This document shows, piece by piece, positions 1,069-41,217 of a stretch of DNA of 64,000 nt. Below the pieces are notes generated by a model. The model did no database searches and had not been told where the DNA came from. It saw only the letters and a list, made by a program, of their open reading frames with translations. This DNA comes from Ignavibacteria bacterium (lineage in GTDB: Bacteria > Bacteroidota > Ignavibacteria > Kapaibacteriales > Kapaibacteriaceae), in contig JADJIQ010000005.1 in assembly GCA_016707005.1 (NCBI GenBank), positions 460,585-524,584 of the forward strand, written 5' to 3'. A program made the translations under genes and the position numbers. Each line of letters opens with the position of its first letter. Position 1 is the stretch's first letter.

Positions 1069-2976
1069 ATGGGTAAGATCATTGGAATTGACCTCGGCAC
1101 AACGAACTCGTGCGTAGCCGTGATGGAAGGAACAACTCCGGTTGTGATCGCGAATGTCGAAGGCATGCGCACCACACCGTCAGTAGTTGCCTTCACAAAG
1201 AGCGGCGAACGCCTCGTTGGCCAGTCTGCCAAACGTCAAAGCGTTACGAATCCGAAGAACACCGTGTATTCGATCAAGCGCTTTATGGGACGTCAGATGT
1301 CCGAAGTGTCGGACGAAGCCAAGAGTGTTCCGTATGCAGTTGTAGCCGGAGACAACAACACGGCGCGCGTTGACATCGACGGACGACTCTATTCGCCCCC
1401 TGAGATCTCGGCGATGACGCTCCAGAAGATGAAGCAGACCGCCGAAGACTATTTGGGCGAGAAGATCACAGAAGCTGTGATCACTGTTCCCGCATACTTC
1501 AACGATGCACAACGTCAGGCAACCAAGGACGCCGGCGAGATCGCAGGCCTTACTGTCCGACGCATCATCAATGAACCAACAGCAGCTGCCCTTGCCTATG
1601 GCCTCGACAAAAAGGGTCAGAACCAAGTTGTAGCAGTTTACGACCTCGGCGGCGGCACGTTCGACATCTCCATCCTGGAGATCGGCGACGGTGTGTTTGA
1701 AGTGAAGTCAACCAATGGTGACACACACCTTGGCGGCGACAACTTCGACCAGCGCATCATCGACTTCCTTGCCGACGAATTCCAGAAGCAAGAAGGCATC
1801 GATCTTCGCAAGGATCCAATGGCACTCCAACGTCTGCGCGAAGCAGCAGAGAAGGCCAAGATCGAACTCTCGCAGATGCTGCAGACCGATGTGAACCTTC
1901 CGTTCATCACCGCAACAGCAGACGGTCCGAAGCACCTCAACATCAACATCACTCGTGCTCGTTTTGAGCAGATGTGTGTTGATCTCTTCGACCGTTCCCT
2001 CAAGCCATGCGAAGGCGCTTTGAAAGATGCCAAGCTCACCCCGTCACAGATCGATGAAGTGATCTTGGTAGGGGGCTCCACACGCATCCCAAAGATCCAA
2101 GAACTCGTGAAGAATTTCTTCGGCAAGGAACCAAACAAGGGTGTAAACCCCGATGAAGTGGTTGCCGTAGGTGCTGCCATCCAAGGTGGCGTACTCTCCG
2201 GTGATGTGAAGGATGTGCTTCTCCTCGATGTTACACCGCTTTCGCTCGGTATCGAGACAATGGGCGGCGTGATGACACCGATGATCCAAGCCAACACCAC
2301 CATCCCGCACCGCAAGACAGAGACCTTCTCCACGGCATCGGACAACCAGCCGTCGGTTGAGATCCACATCCTGCAGGGCGAGCGCTCCATGGCTGCGGAT
2401 AACAAGACACTTGGCAAGTTCCACCTCGACGGAATTCCGCCGGCTCCGCGCGGTATCCCGCAGGTTGAGGTAACATTCGATATCGACGCCAACGGCATCC
2501 TTAGCGTAACTGCGAAGGACAAGGCATCGAACAAGGAACAGAACATCCGCATCACCGGCTCAAGCGGTCTGGACAAGAACGAAGTTGAACAGATGAAGCG
2601 CGACGCTCAAGACCACGCTGCAGAAGACAAGAAGCGCAAGGAAGAGATCGAGATCCGCAACCAAGCCGATCAATTGGTCTACAGCACAGAGAAGCAGTTG
2701 AAGGAATTCGACGAGAAGCTCGATGCCGACACCAAGGATCGTATCAACAAAGCCAAGGATCGTCTCGCAGACGCCGCCAAGAACAATGCCGCCGACATCC
2801 GTCCGGCAATGGATGCCCTCAACCAGATCTGGAGCGAAGCCTCCACAAAGATGTACGAGCAAGCATCCCAAGCCACACCACCAGACGGCGATCAACCAAC
2901 TGACGGCGCAGCCCCTGGCGAACCAGACGGAAACAAGGTTGAGGATGCGGACTATACGATCGTTGACGAGAAGTGA
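1069..2976 (+). CDS. dnaK: Molecular chaperone DnaK (Hsp70).
   Basis: The canonical Hsp70 N-terminus [14 protein letters not shown] is present, along with the DLGGGTFD and [15 protein letters not shown] motifs. Length is 635 aa. Confidence 0.97.
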
Positions 2977-2979
2977 TTC

Positions 2980-3055
2980 GCGAATAGCGAATAGCGAATA
3001 GCGAATAGCGAATAGCGAATAGCGAATAGCGAATAGCGAATAGCGAATAGCGAAT
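2980..3055. repeat. Tandem heptamer array (GCGAATA) of about 11 copies, immediately after the dnaK stop.
   Basis: The sequence shows the perfect tandem run gcgaatagcgaatagcgaata.... The same heptamer appears in both orientations at 58595-58745. Confidence 0.9.
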
Positions 3056-3062
3056 TCTAAGG

Positions 3063-3098
3063 AGCCTGTGTTGGAGAGATCCGGCACAGGCTTTTTTT
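3063..3098 (+). terminator. Rho-independent terminator downstream of dnaK.
   Basis: A hairpin gcctgtg...cacaggc is followed by ttttttt. Confidence 0.6.
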
Positions 3099-3109
3099 AT
3101 GTAGAAGCA

Positions 3110-4063
3110 TCACTTTGTATGAACCCATCCGAATGCGCGTTGAATGGCGGCATCATATCGTTGCGGATCGGAATCCCTGAGACCTACGTGGCCTGCGTTA
3201 GGGAATACAACGAATTCTCGTTGATACGGCGATGGCGACATTGCCTGTGCAATGCGTTCACCATGAGCAAGTGGGACACGTTCATCCATGGATCCATGGA
3301 GAACGAGGAGGTGGCACTTCAGTTGATGAACAACATTCATTGGGGCTATTGAGACAGGCTCAATGCCTAAGATCTCGCAACTCCGGTCTAAAGCCCACGT
3401 GCCAACGAACGGGATACGATACCCTGTTTTCGATTTCACGAGGTCATCAGTAAGACTCCACACGTCTGAATATCCACTTTCCTCAATAACGAGATCCACG
3501 ATGCGATGATCGGATCGTCCATCTAGATCCGCAGCTAGGATCGCGGTTACAGCACCCATGGAATTCCCCCACAATATCACAGGACGATTCTCCGGAAGCG
3601 GCTTTAACGATCTCATGATCGTGAGAAGATCCATACTCTCTCGATATCCATAACTGCAGGTGCTTCCACTGGATCTGCCATGACCTCGTTGATCGAACAT
3701 TACTACCTCAAAGCCCTGCTCTAGAGACCAAGCCGCAGCACCAAGGCCCCCTTCCTTTTGACTGGCGATACCATGAACAACTATGACTCGCCCCACAGGC
3801 TCGCTTTCTATCGGTCTGAGCAATCGAATCTCAAGAATAGTGGAATCATCTGTCCGTAAAACAAATGTCGAATCGAATCTCGATTCAGGAAGTGCCGCTT
3901 CTGCTTGTGCTATCCATGTTGCCATCGCAACAGAGTCAGGCCTCATTGGGTGAACGATTCCCCATGGTAGTTCATTAACAGCATATGAATGGAGTTGAAA
4001 CACCCCATAACCAATGAAGGCAACAATGATCCCGGCTATAGTGATGGCAGTTTTGTGTTTCAT
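3110..4063 (-). CDS. Membrane-anchored alpha/beta-fold hydrolase.
   Basis: A GNSMGA nucleophile elbow (GxSxG) is present with HG and FDQRGHGRSSG motifs and an N-terminal TM helix. Start is placed at MKHKTAI (4063). The upstream extension of ORF 3110..4210 is a translation of the 8-mer repeat array. Confidence 0.8.
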   Translation of the reverse strand: MKHKTAITIAGIIVAFIGYGVFQLHSYAVNELPWGIVHPMRPDSVAMATWIAQAEAALPESRFDSTFVLRTDDSTILEIRLLRPIESEPVGRVIVVHGIASQKEGGLGAAAWSLEQGFEVVMFDQRGHGRSSGSTCSYGYRESMDLLTIMRSLKPLPENRPVILWGNSMGAVTAILAADLDGRSDHRIVDLVIEESGYSDVWSLTDDLVKSKTGYRIPFVGTWALDRSCEILGIEPVSIAPMNVVHQLKCHLLVLHGSMDERVPLAHGERIAQAMSPSPYQREFVVFPNAGHVGLRDSDPQRYDAAIQRAFGWVHTK

Positions 4064-4109
4064 AGAAGTCCAATATGCTACTAGAAATCCACGAAATCTG
4101 CCATGAACC

Positions 4110-4152
4110 CCGTAACTCTGTAACTCCGTATCTCCGTATCTCCGTATCTCTG
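4110..4152. repeat. Tandem octamer array of CCGTAACT/CCGTATCT-type units, about 5 copies.
   Basis: The sequence reads ccgtaactctgtaactccgtatctccgtatctccgtatctctg. It lies between the hydrolase start and the next gene. Confidence 0.8.
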
Positions 4153-4235
4153 TTAAGGTTTTGTCAAGGTGCACCTGAGTTCCCAACCCCCGATGTTCAT
4201 GTAGCAACATCTGTTCACACTCTCTTGGTAATGGT

Positions 4236-6266
4236 ATGAATCAGTCGGTACGGTTGGTGATTTGTGTTTGTGCATTCGTTCTTGGGATGATCTCTCTTGG
4301 CGCACAAACGAATGATACTTTGGTTTACTTAAATATGTACCGAGTTTTTGAGTATGATTTTCGAATTGAGAAGGTGCGGATGAACTTTGCATATGTCGAC
4401 AGTACGTTCATTTTTGGACTTTATGATGATGGGACCATCTTGTCCGGTCCGGCAGATGCTCGGGTTCAACGAACGTTACTCTCTCCAACTGCCTCGGTCT
4501 TCGTACCGGATACTGACACGCTCCTTGCCCTAGATTGTGGCGGTCTGTGGCTTCTGCCTATTGGATCCGATGAGCCCCGTACTCGCATCATGACCGTTTC
4601 AACAGACAGCAGGTTTGTGACGGCGATCGATCATGGTTTTGCATTGAGACGTGGGGGCAAGGTCTATGTCCACCACGGGTACGCTTCAGAACCGAGTGAT
4701 TCAATTGAACATCCGGAGACCGATGACTATTGGTCTGTTAGTGCAGACGGGAAGAGATCTGCATCATGGGGGTTGGGGCCTACACCGGCAACCGTGCAGT
4801 GGTCTGTAGGTGATGTAGAAACTGTTGATCTGTCTACCAATGGATACACGAGATGTGCTGTGCTGTCGGATTCCGTGATCGCAGCCTGGAATTCGAACCT
4901 GTTTATCTCCCGCGACCGCGGGCTTACATGGCACCACTACAGAGCACCGGAGATCGATCCATCATTGCCAGCCGAGGAGATTACCTATCGATCGTTCCGC
5001 AGCATTGAAGTGAGAGGCACGGATATCTATGTGGGGTTTGTGCCGGAAAAGCTAACCGAGATGTATCACTACTTCTCTTCTGATCTTGGCCTCACATGGC
5101 GGAGATACACTCCTGCAACAGCGCCCGTCCACAACAATGCCATTCCATACAGGGCCGGCATTGCCTCTCCTCGCAATGCTGCAGGCGTCCGATTAGTTAC
5201 CGATACAGATGGTACACGCATCGTAGAATCATTGTGTGAGATTCATGAAGCTGAAGGTGCCTGGAATGAGTACTCCATCGTGGAGCAGCGCGTGTCCGTA
5301 ACGGACACACTCTATACCTGGAGCCACACACTTGACTCCTGCATTGCCTTTGACCCGGGTGCAGACAGCACAACGTCATGGATTTGGTTCAACAATGGGA
5401 TACTCCTTACGAAACAACACTCTGAAACCATCTTCACTGAACGTGCCCTCCCAACTAGCCCCCTTCTCTCATGTTGGGTAGTTGATTCTGTAACAGCGAT
5501 CATCAAGGGTGAGGAAGGGGCGTATGTAACACATGACGCAGGAGCAACGTGGACGGCAGATTCCACCTATGATGGACTGCTTGCCTTTACGCCACTTATG
5601 AACGAAACACAACTCAGTCTCTGGCGCACGGCAACTGCCGGACTTGAGATCCGCTCATCGGATTCGATCTCACCGAATGGCACTCTTGTTGCCAGCCTTC
5701 CCAATACCGAAGCATCACAATTCATGATATCCAGGAATGGGGCTTCTGGTTGTGTGGTTCAGGCCGTAGGCGGTTCTGAATGGACCAGTCTTTCCATCGA
5801 GAACTTCACAGATCCAGGGTCGAACGAGCAGTTCTCAGACCACATGGTCCGATTCGCAGACAGCCTCACATCCAGATTGGCCACCGGACCGCAGCTCAAT
5901 GAAACAACCATCATCCCTCGGATCCACGAAGAACATGGATGGGTATTTGGAATCTCAAACGACGCCGAAGTCGGACTTCGGCAATACGCCATCCCCGTAG
6001 GAGTATCTGAATCAACTTCTATAGAGTCAGCATTGTCCATCTTCCCCAACCCAGCAAAAGACCTGTGTGTTATACGGTCCACGGACGGTACAGAGATCAC
6101 ATCGATACAGGTGTATTCTTCGATTGGCACCCTTGTGCTTTCTCAAACTCCTAACGGTTCGGAAGCACAACTTGACACCTCCACTCTTCCGGCTGGTGTA
6201 TACCACCTCTCCGTCATCGGTCCGGTCATCGGGCACACCTCCTCCCGAATCTGCGTAACCCCGTAA
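4236..6266 (+). CDS. Secreted protein with BNR/Asp-box repeats (glycosidase-like or Ycf48-like beta-propeller) and a T9SS C-terminal sorting domain.
   Basis: It has a signal peptide and Asp-box motifs (SRDRGLTW, SSDLGLTW, HDAGATW). The C-terminus (SIFPNPAKD...GVYHLSVI...) matches the Por-secretion tail pattern. Confidence 0.75.
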   Translation: MNQSVRLVICVCAFVLGMISLGAQTNDTLVYLNMYRVFEYDFRIEKVRMNFAYVDSTFIFGLYDDGTILSGPADARVQRTLLSPTASVFVPDTDTLLALDCGGLWLLPIGSDEPRTRIMTVSTDSRFVTAIDHGFALRRGGKVYVHHGYASEPSDSIEHPETDDYWSVSADGKRSASWGLGPTPATVQWSVGDVETVDLSTNGYTRCAVLSDSVIAAWNSNLFISRDRGLTWHHYRAPEIDPSLPAEEITYRSFRSIEVRGTDIYVGFVPEKLTEMYHYFSSDLGLTWRRYTPATAPVHNNAIPYRAGIASPRNAAGVRLVTDTDGTRIVESLCEIHEAEGAWNEYSIVEQRVSVTDTLYTWSHTLDSCIAFDPGADSTTSWIWFNNGILLTKQHSETIFTERALPTSPLLSCWVVDSVTAIIKGEEGAYVTHDAGATWTADSTYDGLLAFTPLMNETQLSLWRTATAGLEIRSSDSISPNGTLVASLPNTEASQFMISRNGASGCVVQAVGGSEWTSLSIENFTDPGSNEQFSDHMVRFADSLTSRLATGPQLNETTIIPRIHEEHGWVFGISNDAEVGLRQYAIPVGVSESTSIESALSIFPNPAKDLCVIRSTDGTEITSIQVYSSIGTLVLSQTPNGSEAQLDTSTLPAGVYHLSVIGPVIGHTSSRICVTP

Positions 6267-6423
6267 CCATGTAACCCCGTAACCATGTAACACCGTAACC
6301 ATGTAACACCGTAACCCCGCCACATCCCAACACCGGGCGAGGCGGGGCCTCGCCCCTACGCCGTAACCCCGTAACCATGTAACCCCGTATCTCCGTATCT
6401 CCGTATCTCGGTATCTTCCCGAT
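6267..6423. repeat. Octamer tandem repeat array (CCGTAACC/ATGTAACA/CCGTATCT units) with an embedded GC-rich hairpin.
   Basis: About 16 octamer units flank the perfect 9-bp palindrome gggcgaggc-ggg-gcctcgccc at 6339-6359, which is terminator-like for the upstream plus-strand gene. Confidence 0.85.
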
Positions 6424-7452
6424 ATGGCTACTACCCGTACGCGCGTTGTTGAACTCTCTGAGCACACACCTGCCCAGGTGATGCTTTTTGGACTGATGTC
6501 TATCACGTGTTCCGTCCTGCTGTTCACGCTTGTGGCGGCGCCGGCAATGGATGCATTCTTCGCTGCGTTTCTCCGAAGTGACGTGATCCGTGATGGGTCT
6601 CAGGTAACGTATCGGATAGCGGAGAACCGCGACGATGAGGTTGTCACAACCGGCACCTTCTCTACGTGGGCACTGGTCGATCCACGCGAACGTAAGACGA
6701 TCGATGCAGCACGCGCCACGGTACCTGCAGGCACATCAACAGCCCGGTATCATGCAGAATATGTCTTCACTCCGGCCGTTGCTCTAGCACCATTGGTGAT
6801 CGTAGGGGGCTTTGTGATCGCGGCCCTTCTCACAACGTTGTTCGGTGGCTTGGCCGGATTTGTCCGCCAGAAGATCGAACGCGAAGTGCTCAACGCCATG
6901 GATAGGCTTGCCATCAGCCAATACGGCGATCACACGCCGGAGGAGATCAAGTCCATCACACGCGACATCCTGAATGCTGATCTGCGAAGACTACATGATC
7001 TGGCGGACTCATATGAGATTCCGTTCTTCGATCTTGAGATGTTGCGTAATGCCCTTCGGTGGCGCGATTCAAAAGGTCTCACGCGGCTGATGCGCACACA
7101 TGACGCCATCAAGTTCTACATGCGCGAGTATTTTACCGACCGTTACAGTAATGCTGTTCTTGGTTTGGTCTACATCGGCGCAGCCATCCTCATCATCGTC
7201 ATCGGCATACGTGGTTTGAAGTTCCTCCCGGCAACGGATCCCTCGGTTGTCCTTGGTGCTCTTGGCCTTGAGTTCATGCTGCTCATCACATATGCGATGG
7301 TGCTCATGTATGGTCGGACGGAAGAAGATGTAGCAGATGCCCATCGCGAATCCCGTGGCCATGGAAGTGCAACGGATGCCGACGCGGAGCATCTGCTTCG
7401 CGCGTTCCTGGCCGTGCCTCGTGCGTCCAAAGACGAAGGGGAGCGTAAATGA
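6424..7452 (+). CDS. Hypothetical integral membrane protein with about 4 TM helices.
   Basis: Hydrophobic helices VMLFGLMSITCSVLLFTLVAAP, LAPLVIVGGFVIAALLTTLFGGLAGF, LGLVYIGAAILIIVIGI and VVLGALGLEFMLLITYAMVL are present. Its stop overlaps the next gene's start (ATGA). Confidence 0.6.
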   Translation: MATTRTRVVELSEHTPAQVMLFGLMSITCSVLLFTLVAAPAMDAFFAAFLRSDVIRDGSQVTYRIAENRDDEVVTTGTFSTWALVDPRERKTIDAARATVPAGTSTARYHAEYVFTPAVALAPLVIVGGFVIAALLTTLFGGLAGFVRQKIEREVLNAMDRLAISQYGDHTPEEIKSITRDILNADLRRLHDLADSYEIPFFDLEMLRNALRWRDSKGLTRLMRTHDAIKFYMREYFTDRYSNAVLGLVYIGAAILIIVIGIRGLKFLPATDPSVVLGALGLEFMLLITYAMVLMYGRTEEDVADAHRESRGHGSATDADAEHLLRAFLAVPRASKDEGERK

Positions 7453-9443
7453 TCGCGGTTCCTGCCGGACGTGAGAACGTATGTTCTGCTCTTACCAAAC
7501 GTATCGATGCATGGAGCACGGGCTCAGGCGGCGTAGTGGTGATCTCAGCTGAACCGGGCATGGGCAAGACAACCCTGCTCGATTGGATGGAATCAAAACT
7601 TGCCAGTGATCACCCTGGCGTTGTTGTCCGCGTTGATTGCCGTCCTCCTATTGGCGCTATCAATACAAGCGCCATACAGCCCCTTCAACCGTTCGGGGCA
7701 GCAATTGAGAAACTCTATCTTCAATCTGGTCAAGCAGCACGCAAACGTCTTGCCGTGAACATCGGCATGAGCGTTCTGGCTTCCATCCCTATCGCCGGCG
7801 ATCTGTTCTACGCGGTTAAGGCCATCTCGCAGGATGTGAACGAATACAAGCGCGAAACGGCTGCGATGCAGGAGAAGAAACGTTCTGCTGTAGCGGAATG
7901 TGTGACCACTCTTCGCACTATCGCCGAGAAGTCGCCGTTCATTCTTCTGGTCGACGAAGCCCAATGGTCGGATTCGCAAAGTGTAGAGGTTATCCGCCAG
8001 CTCGTGAACACCCTGGGCTCAACGCCGCTGTTGATCGTCTGGTGCGTGTCACCTTCCATGGCACAACGGTCCAATCTTCCGTTATCCATGTTGCTTCGCT
8101 CCGATGACATGCGTGCAGCAACGATCAACCTAGAGCCGATCGGGCAGGAACATGTGGCCGCTGTTGTTCAACAGATACTCCCGACTGCACAGATACCCGA
8201 CACTGTCCTCAAGACCATTTTCGATCGCTCGGGAGGCAACCCGGGTATCGTGACCGAATATGCTCGATTCCTGCAGGGGGCTGGCCATCTCCGCCCGGAT
8301 GGGACGATCGATGAGCATGTGTTTGACTCGATCAAGATCGACAGTACGGATCACCCTGCAACGGATGTGATCCTGCGCGACATCACAGAAGACGATGCCG
8401 TCCTCCTCTCTCTCTGTGCAGCAGAGGGTCAGGAATTCACGGCGTTTCTGCAAGCAGCACTCTCAAACACTGATGTGCTGTCGATGATCCGCTCGCTTCG
8501 GCGACTACAACGAACCACCGGACTCATCCGCAGTATTGGCACCCGCGCGCGCTATGGCGTTAAGACCACAGCGTACGAATTCGAACAGAGCTTCCCGTAT
8601 ACCTACTTCCTGCACCGTCCGGAATACGAAGAGCGCAAGAACATCCATCAGCGTATTGCCGAGATCTTGTCGCGAGAATATGCGTCAACACAGATCGATG
8701 AGTTACGCGGACAACTTGCTGCGCACATCGCAGCACATGGCGCAGAAGCAGAGGACAACGTCATGGTAGAGCGTATGCTCACCGTGATGGCTGATGAAGC
8801 TGAACGTTCTGGTTCGCACGACATCGCCTCATACATCCACTCAGAAGTCCTGCCACCATATGCTGGACTGATGAGCAGCGCCGCTGTAAAGGGTGTGGAC
8901 GTCAAAACAGGTGAAGATGATGCGGAAAGTGATGGATCTGCCTACTCAACCGGTCAGCCCCTTCCCGTTGTTGTTCGAGAGATCTCGGATGCCATCGTGC
9001 AAGGTAGGGCCAATGAGGCGCGAACGGCAGCCATCAGAACGTTGGAGACACACGGTGGACTCTCTCGTCACGAACGCGTATTGCTGACGTGTCTTGCTGC
9101 ACGTGCATGTGTGGATCTTGGGATGCTTGATGATGCCGATACCTTCATGCGATCTGTGGCTTCTCTTTCCGACGTCTCTCCGTCAGATCACTGCTACATG
9201 AAGAACGTAGAGGGGGCTATCGAGCTCGCTCGTGGTAATAGTGCCGCTGCCTCTACCTGTTTTCATGAAGCTGCACGCCTTGCCGAGAATCTCCCGGTCA
9301 ACGTGCGCGTGATGACGCTTGGCAATATCATTCTGCATCTGCGTGCAGCCAATGATCGATCCGTTGATCGATATGAACACACTGTGCGCCGTCTTGCATC
9401 CGTGCATGGCTGGCCCGGTGTTCGCGCAGATCTTGGTCTTTGA
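7449..9443 (+). CDS. P-loop NTPase of the AAA_16/STAND class with a C-terminal TPR-like helical region.
   Basis: It carries Walker A (GEPGMGKTTLL), Walker B-like (ILLVDEAQWSD) and a GGNPGIV motif analogous to GNPLF in AAA_16. It is translationally coupled to the upstream membrane protein. Confidence 0.7.
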   Translation: MIAVPAGRENVCSALTKRIDAWSTGSGGVVVISAEPGMGKTTLLDWMESKLASDHPGVVVRVDCRPPIGAINTSAIQPLQPFGAAIEKLYLQSGQAARKRLAVNIGMSVLASIPIAGDLFYAVKAISQDVNEYKRETAAMQEKKRSAVAECVTTLRTIAEKSPFILLVDEAQWSDSQSVEVIRQLVNTLGSTPLLIVWCVSPSMAQRSNLPLSMLLRSDDMRAATINLEPIGQEHVAAVVQQILPTAQIPDTVLKTIFDRSGGNPGIVTEYARFLQGAGHLRPDGTIDEHVFDSIKIDSTDHPATDVILRDITEDDAVLLSLCAAEGQEFTAFLQAALSNTDVLSMIRSLRRLQRTTGLIRSIGTRARYGVKTTAYEFEQSFPYTYFLHRPEYEERKNIHQRIAEILSREYASTQIDELRGQLAAHIAAHGAEAEDNVMVERMLTVMADEAERSGSHDIASYIHSEVLPPYAGLMSSAAVKGVDVKTGEDDAESDGSAYSTGQPLPVVVREISDAIVQGRANEARTAAIRTLETHGGLSRHERVLLTCLAARACVDLGMLDDADTFMRSVASLSDVSPSDHCYMKNVEGAIELARGNSAAASTCFHEAARLAENLPVNVRVMTLGNIILHLRAANDRSVDRYEHTVRRLASVHGWPGVRADLGL

Positions 9444-9464: not shown

Positions 9465-12320
9465 ATGAATCGAACCCTGACGCTTCTTTGCGCCACCGTA
9501 TTCCTCGTTGTCTCTGCATTGTCACAGACTGACAATCCACATGCACGGCATATGGAGCGCGCTCATCCAACGCCGCTTCGCAACGTGAACTACGATGGTC
9601 TCACGTACATGGTGCCGATGCTCACGGAGAAGGTCTATCCAAGCCTCTTCCTCAACGTGAACATGATCGTTGAAGAGACAGATCCGCTTCCGGCACAGAA
9701 CGAATCGTCCATCGCCGTCAACCCACGCAACCCACGTCAGCTCATTGGTTCGGCTGTAGACTACCGGCTCAGCTCCTCTACATGGGCCTACTACTCAACT
9801 GACGCTGGTGCAACGTGGGAGAATATCACACTCGGCACTGCTCGTATCGGTTGGGCATCAAGCAATGACCCATCTGTGTGTTTTGATCATAACGGCAAGG
9901 GATACCTTGTCTACGGTGGTTTCAAACGCGAAGGCAATGTGCAGTTCGGCGAGAATGGCGTCTTCATCAGCTCCACTACGGATGGTGGAAAGACGTGGGG
10001 CATGAAACACACGGCCGTGATCATACACACCGGTCCACAGACGGCCGACTCAACATTCGAAGACAAGTACTACATCCACGCCGACACAGCTGCTACATCA
10101 CCGTATCGTGGTCACCTCTACATTCCGTGGAAACGTGTTGTCAACCGCGACTCTTCAACACAGATCGTGATCTCGAAAAGCACGGATGAAGGGGCTACAT
10201 GGTCCACCCCCACCTACGTTAGCGATCGGTTCCCGCGTACATCTGAAGACACTACTTTCGGACAAAGTTTTCCTCTTGCACGCACAGGTCCCGATGGTTC
10301 TGTGCACCTTGTTTGGAACAGTGGAACAGAAGACGCGCTTCGATACGCACGATCTGTAGATGGTGGTGCTACATGGTCAGCACCGCGGATCATTCACACC
10401 TACAAGCCCTTTGGTACAAAGAGCACGATCAACGGTCAAACCAACTCCCGTGTAAAAGGTGTTGTGCGAGCGGAGTGTTATCCAACACTAACCATTGACA
10501 ACACCGGCGGCGCTCGCAACGGATGGTTGTATCTGACGTGGGCAGCAGACAACTACCCCAACGTCTACTTCTCGCGTTCAACAGATAATGGTACTACGTG
10601 GTCACCTGCTCGGATCGTGCATAGCGACACCACGAACGACCAATTCTGGTCATGGATCTCTCTCGATCCAACCTCCGGAGAGATCGCCATCATGTATAGT
10701 GACAGTCGCGATGACGTAGACAACATCCTCGTCAACACCTACGTGAGTTGGTCATCAGATGGCGGTACCACCTGGCTTGATCGTCGCATCGGCGATGATG
10801 TGAATGACCTACGTCGCAACCCATTCCAAGGCAACACCTTTGCCGGTGACTATTCCGGCTGCGACTTCTACAACGGCGTTGTCTATCCATCGTGGGTGGA
10901 TATGCGCAATACGTATGTGAACCCTGCCGACAACGATGTCTTCACAGCCATTGTAGATACACGAGCACCAGGAGCCCCTTCCACTTTTGCTGCTACAACC
11001 ATTCCCAACCGTCCAACACAGATCGACCTCACGTGGTCTGCTGTAACATCACTTGCGTATGGTCAGCCCCTTCCCCCCGATGCACGGATCATCATCCGCA
11101 GAGACGGATCACCGATCGATACACTCGGCGTAACGGCTGTAGCAATGACCGATACGGGGCTCATCAAGTACCAACTCTACACCTATACACTTACTGTTGT
11201 TGCAGGGGGCAGATCAAGCACACCACGCGTTGCATCGGCATATGCAGGGGGCTCCAAGGAACTCCAGGCGCCACGATTGGTCTCTGCGGTAGGAAGCACA
11301 AGTCGAGAGACCGAGATCGTTGTTGACCTGCCGAAACTTCGTCTCGACAATGTGACACAGATCATCAACCTCGCTGGGCTTGAGTCTGCGCTGACCGAGC
11401 AAAAGTTCGCAAAAGCACTTGCCGTGACCGACACCGGTACTCGCACAACGCATCTCGTTACGCCGTCAGAGGACGGTTGGTATCGCGTGCAAGAACGAGT
11501 CCTTGATTCAGAAGGCAATACGAGTCCGCTCAGTGACTCACTTTGGATCTACACCGGATCGTTGCAGAGCGATGCGCAGAACTTCACCACAGAACCGCGG
11601 TACCACAAGATCCTCGGCAATTGGGGCAATGCAACCAACTTCTATCGGTCTGCTCCGGCATCGTATGCGCATAGTCCTAGTGGTGCATACCTTCCAAACA
11701 GACGGGACACCGTGCAGATATTTCCGTTTGCCGTTTCGTCGGCCGTGATCCCTGAATATCCAACTCCGGCGCTAACGGTTTCCGTTGCAGCCTTCATTGA
11801 TCCAAGCGACACGATGTTCCTTGAGGTATCAACCAATGGAGAGCGCGGTTCCTACTCAGTGCTTGAATGGTGGAACTCCTCGCGAGATGCGCGCTGGAGC
11901 GATACTACCAAGGGCGAAGACGCATGGCGGACATACACAATGGTTCTGCCATACGAGCAAAAAGACGACACACTTCACTTCCGCCTGCGCTTCCGAAGCA
12001 ACGCATCACGGCAATCAGATGGCTTCTACATGGATGATCTTGCTTTTGACTACATCAACAGCGTCGACGAAGAACAGTCAGCTATCTCCACCATCGCCCC
12101 CATTCCAACCTCGGCATTTGTGAACGTCACCTTGCAGAACGATGCACCCGTCACACGCTGCGTGGTTGTTGATGCCCAAGGCACAACCCACAACGTTTCG
12201 TGGTATCAGTCGGGCCTCTCCCTTATTGCTAACGTTCAGCACCTTCCCCAAGGTGTCTATACTATCGCTATCGATCGTACTTCGTCTACGTCCCACTCCC
12301 CATTCCTCATTCTCCGCTAA
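9465..12320 (+). CDS. Secreted BNR/Asp-box repeat protein (sialidase-like or glycosidase-like) with an FN3-like region and a T9SS CTD.
   Basis: It has a signal peptide and multiple Asp-boxes (STDGGKTW, STDEGATW, SVDGGATW, STDNGTTW, SSDGGTTW). The C-terminus has a CTD pattern (GVYTIAIDR...). Confidence 0.75.
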   Translation: MNRTLTLLCATVFLVVSALSQTDNPHARHMERAHPTPLRNVNYDGLTYMVPMLTEKVYPSLFLNVNMIVEETDPLPAQNESSIAVNPRNPRQLIGSAVDYRLSSSTWAYYSTDAGATWENITLGTARIGWASSNDPSVCFDHNGKGYLVYGGFKREGNVQFGENGVFISSTTDGGKTWGMKHTAVIIHTGPQTADSTFEDKYYIHADTAATSPYRGHLYIPWKRVVNRDSSTQIVISKSTDEGATWSTPTYVSDRFPRTSEDTTFGQSFPLARTGPDGSVHLVWNSGTEDALRYARSVDGGATWSAPRIIHTYKPFGTKSTINGQTNSRVKGVVRAECYPTLTIDNTGGARNGWLYLTWAADNYPNVYFSRSTDNGTTWSPARIVHSDTTNDQFWSWISLDPTSGEIAIMYSDSRDDVDNILVNTYVSWSSDGGTTWLDRRIGDDVNDLRRNPFQGNTFAGDYSGCDFYNGVVYPSWVDMRNTYVNPADNDVFTAIVDTRAPGAPSTFAATTIPNRPTQIDLTWSAVTSLAYGQPLPPDARIIIRRDGSPIDTLGVTAVAMTDTGLIKYQLYTYTLTVVAGGRSSTPRVASAYAGGSKELQAPRLVSAVGSTSRETEIVVDLPKLRLDNVTQIINLAGLESALTEQKFAKALAVTDTGTRTTHLVTPSEDGWYRVQERVLDSEGNTSPLSDSLWIYTGSLQSDAQNFTTEPRYHKILGNWGNATNFYRSAPASYAHSPSGAYLPNRRDTVQIFPFAVSSAVIPEYPTPALTVSVAAFIDPSDTMFLEVSTNGERGSYSVLEWWNSSRDARWSDTTKGEDAWRTYTMVLPYEQKDDTLHFRLRFRSNASRQSDGFYMDDLAFDYINSVDEEQSAISTIAPIPTSAFVNVTLQNDAPVTRCVVVDAQGTTHNVSWYQSGLSLIANVQHLPQGVYTIAIDRTSSTSHSPFLILR

Positions 12321-12366
12321 CCCTATCTAACATTCTAACACTCTAACCCTCTAGCACTCTAACGCA
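12318..12366. repeat. Short tandem octamer array of CTAACNNT units between convergent genes.
   Basis: The sequence reads ctaaccctatctaacattctaacactctaaccctctagcactctaacgc. Confidence 0.6.
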
Positions 12367-12676
12367 CCTTCACCGTCTTAATTGTGTTCGTTTGCTTCCC
12401 ATCAGACACAACAACGAGATACATTCCTTGTGCCCAATCTGCACAGTCGACCACATACTCCTGTCGCCCTTCAATAGGGCGGTATCGTGGAAGAAGGTCA
12501 ACAAGGCGAACACCGCTTGTAGATACAACTTCGAGCTGTTTAACATCTTGTTCTGAACCGCGCATTACTGAAACCGAAACAATGAGTGTTCCGTCAAACG
12601 TTCTAGGCTGTGCATCAACTGCGATACCCGATTGAAATACCGTCATTGCCACGAGTATTTGCGTAATGAACTGCAT
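12359..12676 (-). CDS. Small ORF encoding only a signal-peptide-like N-terminus plus a T9SS C-terminal sorting domain.
   Basis: The C-terminal 60 aa (GVRLVDLLP...AQGMYLVVVSDGKQTNTIKTVKVR) is a textbook CTD. Its ATG overlaps the stop of the upstream 830-aa gene (TAATG). Confidence 0.5.
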   Translation of the reverse strand: MQFITQILVAMTVFQSGIAVDAQPRTFDGTLIVSVSVMRGSEQDVKQLEVVSTSGVRLVDLLPRYRPIEGRQEYVVDCADWAQGMYLVVVSDGKQTNTIKTVKVR

Positions 12677-15129
12677 TATTCTGCTCCATGCACCGAGATG
12701 AACGTTTCTCCTGTTCGTGAATTCGTAAGTAGGTAGATCCCTTGCATAGATGATTCTGGCGACACAACACTTCTACCGAGAACATCGTACATGGCAATGA
12801 CGTTCTGATGCCACATTGAGAGGGCCTGATTCCACGGAATACAACGCAATACTACTTTGTTCAGCAACTCACTACTCTCGTTAACCGATGTTGAGTTTGA
12901 TGATCGGAAGCACCCAGTAGTTGTATTCAAATACAAGATATCATTAGAGCCATTGTAGGTCATGCTTATGACTTCTCCAAGTGGCTGGGCAGAAGTAGGC
13001 TGAAAGTCTCGCCATGTGCTACCTAGGTCGTCGGAAGCGATGATGCCGGTAGGCATGGCGAGTAAAACTGTAGAGTCTGACAATACAACTCCATCCCCTC
13101 CCGTGAATGTTAGTCCTCTCGACAAGGACTGTCGATGGGTTTCATTCCAGTCGTTCCCATCTATGTCGAACACAGTGACAGCTGCATCGTCAATAGTGTG
13201 ATTCACTGATTCAGGGTCAAGAGGGGTTGGTATGAAGGACGTATCACGAATAACACGAGAAGAAAGAGTCGCGATCTTTCCGTTCGGTAAGGCTACCGAA
13301 GTGACGAAGTAGGACAAGTCCCTAACTTCTTTGCGTAAACGCCATGTGCTTCCATTGTCTGAGCTTGCAAGAACGTATCCACTTAACACAATCTTGGCTT
13401 CAAGAGTCTCAGCATCGCGTACATTAAGTCCAGATACAAATGCTACCAGCCTTCCATTGCCCGCATTAATAAGAGACGAAACGTACCTCGATTCTGCCCG
13501 CTCATTGATTGGCAGAAGATCTCCAAGACTAAAGGATGAGGTTAGTGTCCGTCCTTCAATTCTCGATATGCCACCCTTTACACCAAAGACGATTGATCCG
13601 TCGTCACTAACAACCACTGACGACGTTGTGTCTTGGAAGAGAGTATCATACTGTAGCTCCATTGGCTCGATCATACGAAGTTTCGTTCCTGGAGTCAGAA
13701 TCTTGCTGCCGAACGCTACCATTTGCCTAAAGCCAAGCGCAGTGTAGTCATATGGGCCATTAGTAGTTTTATCACGAACAAACCCGCTGACAGATCGGTC
13801 CTCCAACAAGCCCACACCATTAACAGATCGAAGCAAACAATCTGTTACCAACTTACAATGCACAACTCCATCTTCAGTGACAACAGAATTCAGGATCTGT
13901 TCTGGACCGAGCACATCAACGTCGTTTAACAATGAAGCTACACTCACATATCCGAATGGGTTAGCTAATACCAGACACCTACTCATTATTAAAAGTATAT
14001 TCTGCGGAGCAAGCCTCCGCACATCGGTAACGTGCGGATACATAAGTTGAGAGGAATCCGCAATTCGAATCATTGGAGAGCTCGCTGGATCGATCTCTAC
14101 TATACTATTACCCCAACGGCTATTGGATGAGGGCTTCAAGACCTGAGATTCTGCCACGTCAGATGGAGTGTAAGTGATATCTGGTGCACTTCCATACTCC
14201 ATCGGTGTCATACTTGGTCCGAACTCACCCCCTGCAATCCATCGATGAAAACTAGCCGGGCTCGTAGTTGAGTTCCTCATAAAAACGATGCCATTGCCAG
14301 ATGAAATGATTCTCATGCGGGAACGATTAAACTCATGTTGAACACCATCAATAGCAACACTTGTCTTGCACGAAACAGATCCTTCTGCCAATGATCCGAA
14401 ACATAAGGTATCCGGTTCTTGCCCCTTTCCATTCTTCATCACTAATATGGATTCCATACCCAATAGTGCGATCGAATGAACACTGCCACTACCTGCATCT
14501 AGGTATGGGGCGTTGTAGACCTGTCCATTTCTGACGATCAGAAAGTCGCGCAATGCTTGGTTGCTCAATAGTATTGCACTTCGCAAGGATCGGTTACGAT
14601 CACCGTAACCGTTCATCTCTATCCAATTGTCACCACAGTCTGTTGATATAAAGCTAATGGGCATTGTTGTATCTGGCGCTTCTTTGTGACGGCCGTACGC
14701 ATACATAAGTCCCGCGCCATGCAGTACAACTTCAGTGATTACATACGGAGTATTCCGAATCTGTGTATGTACTGTGCCCGCTCCCGTACGTGGGATAATG
14801 ACGTATCGCCGCGCATCAAAGCCCTCTTGAACGACAACAACGGAACCATCTTGGCAATCGGACGGCTTGTTTTTTTCGAAAGCAGGATCATTTACAATGC
14901 CATTAACCATTGAAAGCCTGAGGTGTGTTGCGTCAAGCCTCATTGGGGCGAGACGTTGCACAATCAACGGTATGTTATCATCAAACTGCGATGGCATTAA
15001 CTCAACGGCTGTTCCCGTACCAACAATCATTCGTTGCTGGTAATGCACTTGAAAGTCAATTTGACTTACTACCGCCGTGTTGCCTATTGAGAGACAAGCA
15101 AGCACAGCGAGCGTCAGCCCGATGTTCAT
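12676..15129 (-). CDS. Secreted BNR/Asp-box beta-propeller protein with its own CTD-like C-terminus.
   Basis: It has a signal peptide (MNIGLTLAVLACLSIG) and Asp-boxes (SSDNGSTW, SDDLGSTW, STDCGDNW). The tail is CTD-like (NVIAMYDVLGRSVV...QGIYLL). Alternative starts lie at 15156, 15159 and 15168. Confidence 0.7.
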   Translation of the reverse strand: MNIGLTLAVLACLSIGNTAVVSQIDFQVHYQQRMIVGTGTAVELMPSQFDDNIPLIVQRLAPMRLDATHLRLSMVNGIVNDPAFEKNKPSDCQDGSVVVVQEGFDARRYVIIPRTGAGTVHTQIRNTPYVITEVVLHGAGLMYAYGRHKEAPDTTMPISFISTDCGDNWIEMNGYGDRNRSLRSAILLSNQALRDFLIVRNGQVYNAPYLDAGSGSVHSIALLGMESILVMKNGKGQEPDTLCFGSLAEGSVSCKTSVAIDGVQHEFNRSRMRIISSGNGIVFMRNSTTSPASFHRWIAGGEFGPSMTPMEYGSAPDITYTPSDVAESQVLKPSSNSRWGNSIVEIDPASSPMIRIADSSQLMYPHVTDVRRLAPQNILLIMSRCLVLANPFGYVSVASLLNDVDVLGPEQILNSVVTEDGVVHCKLVTDCLLRSVNGVGLLEDRSVSGFVRDKTTNGPYDYTALGFRQMVAFGSKILTPGTKLRMIEPMELQYDTLFQDTTSSVVVSDDGSIVFGVKGGISRIEGRTLTSSFSLGDLLPINERAESRYVSSLINAGNGRLVAFVSGLNVRDAETLEAKIVLSGYVLASSDNGSTWRLRKEVRDLSYFVTSVALPNGKIATLSSRVIRDTSFIPTPLDPESVNHTIDDAAVTVFDIDGNDWNETHRQSLSRGLTFTGGDGVVLSDSTVLLAMPTGIIASDDLGSTWRDFQPTSAQPLGEVISMTYNGSNDILYLNTTTGCFRSSNSTSVNESSELLNKVVLRCIPWNQALSMWHQNVIAMYDVLGRSVVSPESSMQGIYLLTNSRTGETFISVHGAE

Positions 15130-15155
15130 CGGGCTGACGCAAGCTTTTAGGCACA

Positions 15156-15875
15156 TCATGGTGCACAATCCGGATCTGTGTTACAACATTCAAGCCTCCT
15201 CGGGCAACTTTCAATAAGGAAGCATGGCTCGTAGCAGGATGAGTTAGAATAATCACATTCATTATAATCTGAAACAAAGCAACAGCCATTCGCAGCCCTC
15301 TCCCAGCCAGTCTCAATAATACAACAGCCATCGCCGCACCTCTCAATGCAATTGGTGGTGCTATTGAAACTCACACATTTGGGGAAGATCACACTCCAGC
15401 AGTAAATCGATCCCGTTGCCAATGGCACGTTTGCACCTAGGTAGCCAGGATTCTTACACGGATCAAACCTGCACAGAATTGCCTCAAACACTAGCTTGAC
15501 GTCCAAAGGGGAGGGAGGTGGATCTATAAAACACACCTTTGTGATGTGTGTGTATTGATTCATTTGCAGGTTGGAACAGAGACCAGGTAGCAATTGACCA
15601 ATTCCAGGCCTTGTTAGACAACCAAAAATCTCAATCTCATAATCACGGCCATCAATGCAGATCGTCAACTGACCCATTGAGGCAGGTTCATCACAATCAC
15701 AGGCACTTGTCATCGGAGATTCTACGGCAGATCTGATCCCTAGCCCAACTACACTTAATGCGCCTGGTTGGCTATGCCATGCGGCGGGGGGGGTAATAGA
15801 ATACGCCGTCATTATGCACGACGTAGCAATGAATACGGCCAGAGTAGCTCTGGCTATTACATGAAACCCTTTCAT
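15156..15875 (-). CDS. Cysteine-rich secreted hypothetical protein, about 240 aa with 30 or more Cys.
   Basis: It has a signal peptide (MKGFHVIARATLAVFIATSC) and dense CxC, CC and CxxC spacing. A GGAGG-like SD and a TAnnTTTG-type promoter lie upstream. Confidence 0.55.
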   Translation of the reverse strand: MKGFHVIARATLAVFIATSCIMTAYSITPPAAWHSQPGALSVVGLGIRSAVESPMTSACDCDEPASMGQLTICIDGRDYEIEIFGCLTRPGIGQLLPGLCSNLQMNQYTHITKVCFIDPPPSPLDVKLVFEAILCRFDPCKNPGYLGANVPLATGSIYCWSVIFPKCVSFNSTTNCIERCGDGCCIIETGWERAANGCCFVSDYNECDYSNSSCYEPCFLIESCPRRLECCNTDPDCAP

Positions 15876-15987
15876 GGGTCCCTCCTCAATAAAGTAGAAA
15901 ATGTATAAACCGCGTTCAGCGGCATCTATCAATAAATTTCTAGGGTAGGCAAATACAAAATAGAAAAAACTCGATTCCATCAAACAC

Positions 15988-17058
15988 CTAATTCTCCAAC
16001 ACAAACGATATCTCCGTCCCCCTGCCCACCCCGCTGTCTACTGCTATCGGCGCATGATGCGCTTCGAGAATATGCTTCACGATCGCTAGACCCAGACCGG
16101 TGCCGCCAACGGCTCGCGAGCGGTCTTTGTCAACGCGGTAGAACCGCTCAAAGATGCGTGGGAGTGACTCTTCGGGAATGCCGATGCCTGTGTCCCGAAC
16201 GCTTATCCGCAGGGTAGTGTCAACATGTTTTGTGCTCACGTAGACATCTCCACCATCAACATTGTATTTGATGGCATTCTCAAGGAGATTGGTCATCACC
16301 TGCGTGAGACGTTCTTTATCGCCGTACACCGTTGAGTTCTCTGCGATGTCACAGTGCACGGTAACGTTGCGCTGCGCAGCGCGGATCTCCGTAGTGTGAA
16401 CGATGTCGCGCAGGAGTTCTCCGATATCGAAATAGCGGAAGGAGAACTTGAGCTCACCGCTCTCGATCCGAGAGATATCGATAAGGTCGCTCAACAGAGC
16501 ATTGAGACGGAGAGCATTGTTGTAGGCTTTTTCGAGGAACTGCAGCGACACCTGCGGATCGTCCATTGCACCATCGAGCAACGTCTCCAGATATCCCTGC
16601 ACACTGAAGATCGGAGTGCGGAGTTCGTGAGAAACGTTGGCAACGAATTCCGAGCGGACGCGTTCGAGTCGACGCATTTCGTCGATGTCCTTCGCTGCCT
16701 TGTGTGCAAGTCTGTTGATCGCATCAGCAACACGGACAACATCAAGCAATGCGTTCTTGCCGAGTTCGATCCTACCGCTCACGGCACCGTCAGTGATGGC
16801 ATGTGTGATCTCGATGATCCGATCAAGGGGCTCAACGATCCTTGTACGTTGGGACCGCAGGAAGATCCAGACACATGCCGCGCCCCCTCCCGAAACAAGG
16901 AGAATGAAGAGGAGGATCCGAGGTGCACCGATGCCGGAAACGTCTGTTCCGGTAATTGCCAATACCACAAGAGCTGCGAGGTTCACGCCGACCAATGAAA
17001 GGGTCAGCCAGAACATCGAAAACCGAGTTATCGTGGGTCTAATTGACGTTGGCGCCAT
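15988..17058 (-). CDS. Sensor histidine kinase with 2 TM helices and HisKA/HATPase domains.
   Basis: The H-box SHELRTP, N-box NLLENAIKY, DTGIGIP and GGTGLGLAIVK motifs are present. Confidence 0.85.
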   Translation of the reverse strand: MAPTSIRPTITRFSMFWLTLSLVGVNLAALVVLAITGTDVSGIGAPRILLFILLVSGGGAACVWIFLRSQRTRIVEPLDRIIEITHAITDGAVSGRIELGKNALLDVVRVADAINRLAHKAAKDIDEMRRLERVRSEFVANVSHELRTPIFSVQGYLETLLDGAMDDPQVSLQFLEKAYNNALRLNALLSDLIDISRIESGELKFSFRYFDIGELLRDIVHTTEIRAAQRNVTVHCDIAENSTVYGDKERLTQVMTNLLENAIKYNVDGGDVYVSTKHVDTTLRISVRDTGIGIPEESLPRIFERFYRVDKDRSRAVGGTGLGLAIVKHILEAHHAPIAVDSGVGRGTEISFVLEN

Positions 17059-40745: not shown

Positions 40746-41217
40746 ACGATCCTCCAAATGAGACTTTGAAATACTGTTACTCTTACTGTTATTCTTCATA
40801 GTTGACGTGGTCTGTTCCCCATTCACAAACACCAATTGGCGCCCGAGGCGCCTTGATTTTTCAGATTGTGCATTGTCGCGTAGAGTCATAATGTCCTTCC
40901 GAACCGTTGGATTGAAACGGCACGGCGCACAACACCCCCGTTGCCAGAGGCGTGTACATCGTCGCGAAAATAGGTCGACGGAGCGGTTCCACCAAACACG
41001 ACTTTGCCACAAAGCATCATATATGCCATGGGACTAGCGTTTTTCGCGAATATGTTCTGCGTCGTCTGAGTCATTGTCTTCGATCAGCGTTGTTTTTATG
41101 TGTTGCTACGTGGTTCTACGTAGACAAACCTGTGAAACAGATTCCACACCACCAAGGACATTGGACCAGATCACGGTGGGTCACCCCCCGAAATCCAGCC
41201 CACCTTGATGGCAGGAG

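Follow-up and report, generated by a model that had tools for sequence, protein, structure and literature searches.

The window, by which we mean the whole stretch of 64,000 nucleotides of Ignavibacteria bacterium DNA that was analyzed, carries on its minus strand a 105-codon ORF directly downstream of a gene encoding a protein of 830 amino acids (aa), which itself follows a gene for a Cys-rich secreted protein. The features of this three-gene cassette, listed in the direction of transcription, are the following:

12359..16004, minus strand: low-GC island with the three-gene cassette, recognized by GC and GC3
15156..15875, minus strand: first cassette gene, for a Cys-rich secreted protein of 239 aa when read from the ATG at 15875; its open frame extends upstream to 16004
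12676..15168, minus strand: large gene for a secreted protein, 830 aa from a TTG (ORF list)
12676..15168, minus strand: same gene with the alternative start of the gene callers, the ATG at 15159, giving 827 aa
12679..12855, minus strand: residues 772–830 of the large protein, a short and putatively CTD-derived tail (W..H...W helix, lG, GxY, and I.V..E end; alignment with the homologue P0023 and AF2)
12684..12687, minus strand: GGAG, Shine-Dalgarno-like, 7 nt upstream of the ATG of the mini-ORF and inside the 3' end of the large gene; conserved in the related locus L009
12674..12678, minus strand: TAATG stop/start overlap from the large gene to the mini gene, read in the sequence and identical in L009
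12359..12676, minus strand: mini-ORF, 105 aa plus stop, ATG start (ORF list)
12626..12676, minus strand: leader of the mini-protein, residues 1–17 MQFITQILVAMTVFQSG, short, uncharged, and hydrophobic, a presumed Sec signal peptide (AF2, homologues)
12362..12625, minus strand: residues 18–105 of the mini-protein, a CTD-like seven-stranded beta-sandwich with the invariant motifs DAxPR, W..GMY, and, at the C-terminus, K..K

The overlap of the 830-aa and 105-aa ORFs in TAATG, described in an earlier note on this DNA, is present in the minus-strand sequence. The junction reads ...GGAGCAGAATAATGCAG... / GCAGAATAATGCAG, with one base common to the TAA of the large ORF and the ATG of the mini-ORF, and this 1-nt overlap suggests that the two genes are translationally coupled. 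The mini-ORF lies in the −1 frame of the large gene, whose own frame is closed at the TAA. Upstream of its ATG the mini frame stays open for 32 codons, without an earlier start codon. The same note had both frames open for about 20 codons, such that a single indel would fuse them; both are indeed open, over a longer stretch than it counted. At a spacing similar to that of GGAG in the window, GAGG or AAGGAG precedes the mini start in five homologous loci (L014, L021, L022, L025, and L027). We gave this argument little weight, as such a motif occurs at about 9 of the 31 ORF starts of the window and is weak evidence. A scan for promoters and terminators gave only background levels. Downstream, the whole 38-nt gap between the mini-ORF and a convergent 951-aa gene consists of an 8-nt tandem repeat (TCTAACAC on the plus strand, 4.8 copies, window 12326..12363), which includes the stop codon of the mini-ORF; the array is shorter in L009.

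The cassette differs in composition from its surroundings. The GC content of the island is 0.464 versus 0.532 ± 0.010 (minimum 0.504) in equal-sized stretches elsewhere, and its GC3 is 0.42–0.44 versus 0.55–0.62 in the neighboring genes. This compositional island suggests that the three genes were acquired horizontally as a unit. The TGA of the Cys-rich gene overlaps the ATG of the large gene as ATGA. The Cys-rich protein has more than 20 Cys in a conserved part of about 180 aa, and it matches no Pfam family and has no relative in the PDB. Neither a Pfam toxin domain nor a PADLOC match was found in the three proteins. Outside the cassette, canonical Por_Secre_tail domains were detected in the window in the products of 4236..6266 (BNR plus CTD, 38 bits) and 28791..41012 (34 bits), the latter a minus-strand gene for a giant protein of 4073 aa that also has seven PKD-like domains. 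These two genes show an abundance of T9SS-type cargo in the region and point to use of this sorting system by the organism.

At least 22 contigs encode an identical 105-aa protein. Across the eight of them that we fetched (seven NCBI MAGs and one ENA metagenome), the 3.1-kb region is 99.9–100% identical; the name given by NCBI to the identical large protein assigns them to "Ignavibacteria bacterium." The junction is invariant in all eight assemblies, despite the fragmentation of neighbor genes by indels in some of them. L009, which shows 93.9% nucleotide identity and comes from a different sequencing run, retains both ORFs and the TAATG. Between the window and L009, the mini-ORF shows 18 nucleotide differences, 14 synonymous and 4 nonsynonymous (dN/dS 0.08), and three of the four amino acid differences fall within leader residues 1–17. 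Over residues 26–105 there are 11 synonymous changes and a single nonsynonymous one (dN/dS 0.026). As a control, the same region read in the other two frames gives dN/dS values of 0.61 and 4.1; this contrast indicates that the mini-ORF frame is translated and strongly constrained. In another lineage, dN/dS of the mini gene is 0.14–0.25. For the large gene, dN/dS is 0.28 as a whole and 0.74 over the last 60 codons. The zone where the two open frames overlap has accumulated five changes in about 60 nt, all five nonsynonymous in the large frame and four in the mini frame. The tail of the large protein is the most relaxed part of its gene.

ORFs of a different nature were also encountered in these assemblies. 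The 951-aa BNR/CTD gene (window 9465..12320) is split into several short ORFs in L001 (8357..11208) and L004 (8357..11205), probably by assembly indels. Its breakage in two MAGs of the same species shows that CTD fragment ORFs do arise as artifacts in these genomes. In L001, a 77-aa Por_Secre_tail ORF (14405..14638) is found where other assemblies carry a 683-aa gene.

The mini-protein matches the TIGR04183 Por_Secre_tail model with 23.9 bits (E 3.1e-5), just above the curated cutoff of 23, and its mature part alone scores 24.7 bits. The match spans residues 41–103 of 105 and profile positions 16–71 of 72 and thus corresponds to the extreme C-terminus. With Pfam PF18962 the score is 21.3 bits, under the gathering score of 27. 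TIGR04183 is also matched by 10 of the 12 members of the mini family (E <= 0.01), and hhalign aligns the mini-protein with the canonical CTD of P0023, a distant homologue of the large protein, with an E value of 5e-5. The "textbook CTD" of the earlier note is therefore a real match, although a borderline one, and we place the domain in the type A CTD family of the T9SS, as a borderline but consistent member. AF2 predicts a seven-stranded, Ig-like sandwich resembling T9SS CTDs (pLDDT 85), for which a generic MG/Ig domain gave the best structural match. According to both the model and the alignment, the first strand begins at residue 18, leaving no passenger between leader and domain. Like the type A CTDs of RgpB, NucA, and mirolase (TIGR04183/PF18962), the domain stands at the extreme C-terminus and has the GxY strand and the terminal K..K, and like a T9SS cargo the mini-protein begins with a leader. 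It differs from type A CTD proteins in several respects: the domain is the whole mature protein, DAxPR replaces PNP, a W stands three residues before GMY, and the CTD has a gene of its own, tied to a single partner family.

The leader of the window copy is 17–22 aa long, contains no basic residue, and is about 14 residues shorter than those of its homologues; that of L009 has one Lys. AF2 gives pLDDT values below 50 over residues 1–14. In the homologues, the signal peptide is of the classical kind (K/R in the n-region, then a hydrophobic core, and small residues at −3/−1) and is followed by PPVPGF.VDAQPR; the PPVPGF stretch is present in most of them and lost in the window copy. We presume that the window leader likewise acts as a Sec signal peptide. 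The likely signal-peptidase sites would expose an N-terminal Gln, both in the mini-protein (22/23, AVDA|QPR) and in the large protein (around 35/36, VVS|QID), and the consensus of the homologues of the latter is A|Q. An N-terminal Gln of this kind is reminiscent of the "Q-rule" reported for SPI substrates of Bacteroidetes.

Two further observations concern the relatives of the domain. In a profile search of the PDB, residues 46–81 of the mini family were matched to residues 2191–2226 of 9flp_A, the Aureispira grappling-hook protein GhpA, with a whole-sequence E value of 1.5e-7; the match is internal, covers 36 residues, and no single stretch passes by itself. A tblastn search of the window with the mini-protein and the tail of the large protein revealed no paralogous copy, and the mini gene is therefore not a recent local duplication of a neighboring CTD. 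The mini gene may possibly have originated by duplication or fission of an ancestral CTD.

The large protein had been described as an 830-aa BNR protein. The BNR assignment rests on a weak match to BNR_2 (E 0.016). The predicted structure of the protein is all-beta (AF2, pLDDT 75). In a Foldseek search with this model, the best matches were two-propeller proteins, namely GH74 xyloglucanases, the BT4663 sensor domain, and PorZ, at TM-scores of 0.2–0.3. Word-indexed protein searches with the single 830-aa or 105-aa sequence returned only the query itself or a 96% variant; the families surfaced only with an exhaustive phmmer search for the large protein and a profile of the homologues for the mini-protein. 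The phmmer search gave 33 matches at E <= 0.001: about 30 remote relatives (23–31% identity) and two short near-identical fragments. The full-length relatives are 785–857 aa long, and the alignment mostly reaches to about 10–50 residues from the C-terminus. They share the end module A.TW..H...W......LT...G.........P.PG.Y..........I.V..E. No fusion with a CTD exists among these homologues, none of which is long enough.

The segment that the earlier note had quoted from the end of the large protein (NVIAMYDVLGRSVV...QGIYLL) is present. The note had inferred that the gene already has a CTD of its own, and this proved true only in part. The Por_Secre_tail search that it had proposed for both segments found the domain in the mini-protein, as given above, and not in the last 75 residues of the large protein, where nothing matched even at E <= 10. 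One of the 16 members of the large family matches TIGR04183, presumably P0023, which has a long canonical CTD where the other large proteins have a short tail. The short tails align to this CTD with two deletions, and G798, G810, and Y812 are invariant, so that the G...GxY signature is kept. The tail of the large protein is about 13–20 residues shorter than a canonical CTD. AF2 models it as a strand (775–778), a helix (779–788), and three strands (791–795, 810–816, and 822–827) with pLDDT 70–79, and not as a seven-stranded domain: the predicted helix takes the place of the first strands, and the end is acidic instead of K..K. By hhalign, the tails of the large family resemble the mini family with a probability of only 25% (E 8e-4). 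Position and signature, as read from P0023, thus agree with the earlier claim, and length, HMM result, and predicted topology do not. We interpret the tail as an apparently shortened and decayed CTD derivative that has become undetectable by HMM.

A large all-beta protein that best matches two-propeller structures and ends in a small, putatively CTD-derived module is reminiscent of PorZ (PG1604) of Porphyromonas gingivalis, which has two beta-propellers and a retained CTD and is matched by our all-beta model with a Foldseek E value of 6.5e-12 (5m11). However, the scores of GH74 enzymes and HTCS sensor domains are as good as this or higher, and the TM-scores are only 0.2–0.3. There is also no relationship at the sequence level, and no PorZ model was matched in the NCBIfam scan. 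Furthermore, the CTD of PorZ is fused to the propellers, whereas that of the cassette is a separate polypeptide.

Loci of the large family were retrieved with an alignment of the closer subset of its homologues, and in three of them (L013, L014, and L017) a homologous small ORF directly follows the large gene. The profile search with the mini family yielded 11 protein clusters of 103–118 aa, one of which (P0002) is the 96% variant of the window lineage. NCBI has automatically named one of the homologues (P0040) "T9SS type A sorting domain-containing protein." By locus, the mini homologues are 105–123 aa long and belong to six lineages: window/L009, L013, L014/22/25/27, L017, L020/28/29, and L021. 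A metagenome scan added four more loci, all from two lineages already found. Every mini gene with a readable context lies −4 to +11 nt downstream of a gene of the large family (about 770–830 aa). True spacers of 1–11 nt, which often contain GAGG or AAGGAG, lie between the two genes in three of the lineages (L020, L021, L022, and L025), so that the genes are as a rule translated separately. Thirteen residues are invariant in the mini family: D21, A22, P24, R25, L48, G55, Q72, W81, G84, M85, Y86, K100, and K103. Relative to the window pair, the mini homologues are 31–39% identical and their large partners 24–25%; between L022 and L025, the mini-proteins are 94% identical and the large proteins 60%.

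Conversely, no mini gene follows the large gene in L010, L012, L016, L019, and the second cassette of L027, although these large genes encode the same short tail. Either the tail works without a mini-protein or the mini-protein acts from elsewhere in the genome. L027 carries tandem cassettes (1319..8649) in the order Cys-rich, large, mini, Cys-rich, large, and no mini homologue was found in the approximately 600 nt downstream of the second large gene. In L018, a truncated 74-aa ORF follows the large gene (6466..6690) and has kept the signal peptide and the start "...PVPESTWIIDAY..."; it appears to be a decaying mini gene. A mosaic organization was observed in L014, L022, and L025, where the N-terminal two thirds of the large proteins are about 40–55% identical, and the last approximately 200 residues and the mini-protein 85–97% (88–97% at the nucleotide level). 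This points to recombination of the 3' end or to diversification of the N-terminal propeller. Cys-rich homologues lie directly upstream of the large gene in L010, L013–L015, L017–L020, L022, and L025–L028. The Cys-rich gene precedes the large gene in almost all loci, mini-less ones included, and is thus more constant than the mini gene. The Cys-rich and propeller proteins form the core of the cassette, with the mini-protein as a frequent third member.

The 105-codon ORF is, with little doubt, a genuine and separately translated gene. It comes third in a conserved cassette, probably acquired by horizontal transfer and found in Ignavibacteria and Kapaibacteria-type bacteria, that encodes a Cys-rich secreted protein, a predicted double beta-propeller of about 820 aa with an apparently decayed short CTD, and a protein of about 105–120 aa made of a presumed signal peptide and one complete T9SS type-A-like sorting domain. 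Of the two possibilities raised by the earlier note, that of a free-standing CTD peptide is borne out by the purifying selection, the conserved family, and the CTD-like seven-stranded sandwich.

Most likely, the mini-protein is exported via Sec and, as a CTD without cargo, works at the T9SS together with the partner with which it is co-translated. How it would do so is more tentative. The reading that we prefer, plausible although short of probable, is that it supplies a complete CTD in trans to the propeller protein. The three overlapping genes (ATGA, TAATG) would be translated together, and Sec would take all three products across the inner membrane. Once in the periplasm, the CTD without cargo would associate with its partner, the likely contact being an Ig-like beta-sheet pairing or a strand exchange with the partner's truncated tail. 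This tail would have kept the C-terminal hairpin strands of a CTD and lost the N-terminal strands and the terminal K..K. The mini-protein would then give a complete signal in trans for the propeller protein to be translocated by the T9SS and/or attached to the surface, either by itself or in a complex with the Cys-rich protein. We favor this model on account of the tight coupling, the decayed tail of the partner, and the published behavior of CTDs. The isolated CTD of RgpB dimerizes by swapping its C-terminal strand, heterodimers of CTDs with other Ig-like domains were deemed conceivable by the authors, and the last 22 residues of the CTD, which form two strands, are enough as an export signal and represent the primary one (PMC4804311). 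The mini-less cassettes, the lack of a T9SS precedent, and the weak and atypical leader of the window copy weaken the model. In the literature on stand-alone, trans, or hitchhiking CTDs, we found no report of piggy-back or trans-CTD export by the T9SS and no account of a conserved gene for a CTD without cargo or of such a partnership.

A conceptual analogue of CTD action in trans is the Tat "hitchhiker" co-export, in which a subunit that lacks a signal is carried along by the co-expressed partner that has one and to which it is bound, by a different machinery and across a different membrane. By this analogy, the cassette may encode a natural split T9SS cargo, in which the CTD pairs in trans with the decayed stub of the propeller protein, perhaps also with the Cys-rich product, and a folded hetero-complex is exported as a hitchhiker; we regard this specific form as rather doubtful. 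A dedicated accessory encoded immediately beside a T9SS-related protein is also found for type B CTD cargo with an adjacent PorP/SprF-like gene, as in SprB-SprF. In type B systems, however, an outer-membrane beta-barrel serves as partner and the cargo keeps its CTD, whereas the partner in the cassette is itself a soluble CTD-like domain.

Alternatively, the mini-protein could be of CTD origin and no longer a secretion signal, having been exapted as an Ig-like subunit, a periplasmic or surface accessory of the propeller or Cys-rich protein. We consider this a serious alternative but an unlikely one, and equally so the roles that it might entail (chaperone, inhibitor, immunity-like partner, or adaptor), in which the tight coupling would ensure stoichiometry. 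A small, overlapping gene immediately downstream is typical of obligate binding partners, and the borderline HMM match, with the Pfam score below gathering, and the generic MG/Ig domain as best structural match would suit such a subunit. So would the family-specific DAxPR and W..GMY, which differ from the usual PNP and L..GxY motifs of canonical CTDs, and the stronger conservation of the mini-protein than of its partner in both comparisons given above. The mini-protein nevertheless retains the terminal K..K, the GxY signature, and, as in type A CTDs, a placement strictly at the C-terminus. Moreover, the many mini-less cassettes are unexpected for an essential chaperone or immunity protein, and the absence of a PADLOC match for any of the three proteins also speaks against this reading.

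The mini-protein could also be an autonomous T9SS substrate without cargo, exported and processed alone and with no physical link to the propeller protein. It might serve as a decoy, as a regulator of translocon or PorV occupancy, or as the carrier of the short conserved PPVPGF peptide, through which it would attach to the surface. Foreign passengers are exported when provided with a signal peptide and a CTD, and a leader followed by a complete seven-strand CTD is what export needs. The conserved P-P-V-P-G-F between signal peptide and domain in most homologues would also fit. This reading, however, leaves unexplained the strict association with one protein family in all six lineages, and almost nothing would be left of the protein after removal of the CTD. 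The window copy, furthermore, has no PPVPGF and is under strong selection all the same. Both the autonomous export and the roles just named seem quite improbable to us, although we count this reading, too, as a serious rival.

The other possibility raised by the earlier note was that a frameshift had produced a tandem CTD, the second copy of which belongs to the real protein. It is refuted by the ends of the homologues, the spacers, and the lack of a slippery heptamer. A true chain of about 930 aa with a C-terminal CTD, split by an indel in the gene or in the assembly and with a fortuitous mini start, could be imagined from the 32 codons open in both frames and from the indel-fragmented neighbors in some long-read MAGs (the 951-aa gene, L001, L004). 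It is highly improbable given the identical junction in eight assemblies, kept at 94% identity in a different run, and given the 1–11 nt spacers and the own classical signal peptides of the mini-proteins in L020, L021, L022, and L025. The alignment of orthologs that the note had suggested revealed no continuous protein either: the remote homologues are all 785–857 aa long with the same tail. Just as improbable is a programmed −1 ribosomal frameshift near the end of the large gene, yielding a minority fusion with a full CTD. The mini frame is indeed the −1 frame and open upstream, but no X XXY YYZ heptamer occurs in the zero frame of the 32-codon zone, the overlap zone is the least conserved relative to L009, and spacers containing stop codons prevent a fusion in homologues. 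The frameshift, sequencing-error, and programmed-frameshift readings are thus effectively excluded by the spacers, the homologue lengths, the missing slippery site, and the poor conservation of the overlap zone.

The sorting domains of the T9SS are regarded as tags that act in cis and are removed from their cargo. A conserved and selected gene that encodes only the tag and is locked to a partner with a decayed tag represents a natural system to address open questions on the T9SS: whether a CTD can function in trans, whether the minimal recognized signal consists of the last two strands or of the whole sandwich, and whether hetero-complexes can pass through the translocon. The finding is also a warning for annotation, as short "T9SS sorting domain-containing" ORFs beside large genes are usually dismissed as frameshift fragments, and the mini-ORF is not one. 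Should the mini-protein prove to be just a subunit for binding, it would illustrate the exaptation of a secretion signal as an Ig-like partner domain. The action of a CTD in trans, if true, would be considerably more interesting.
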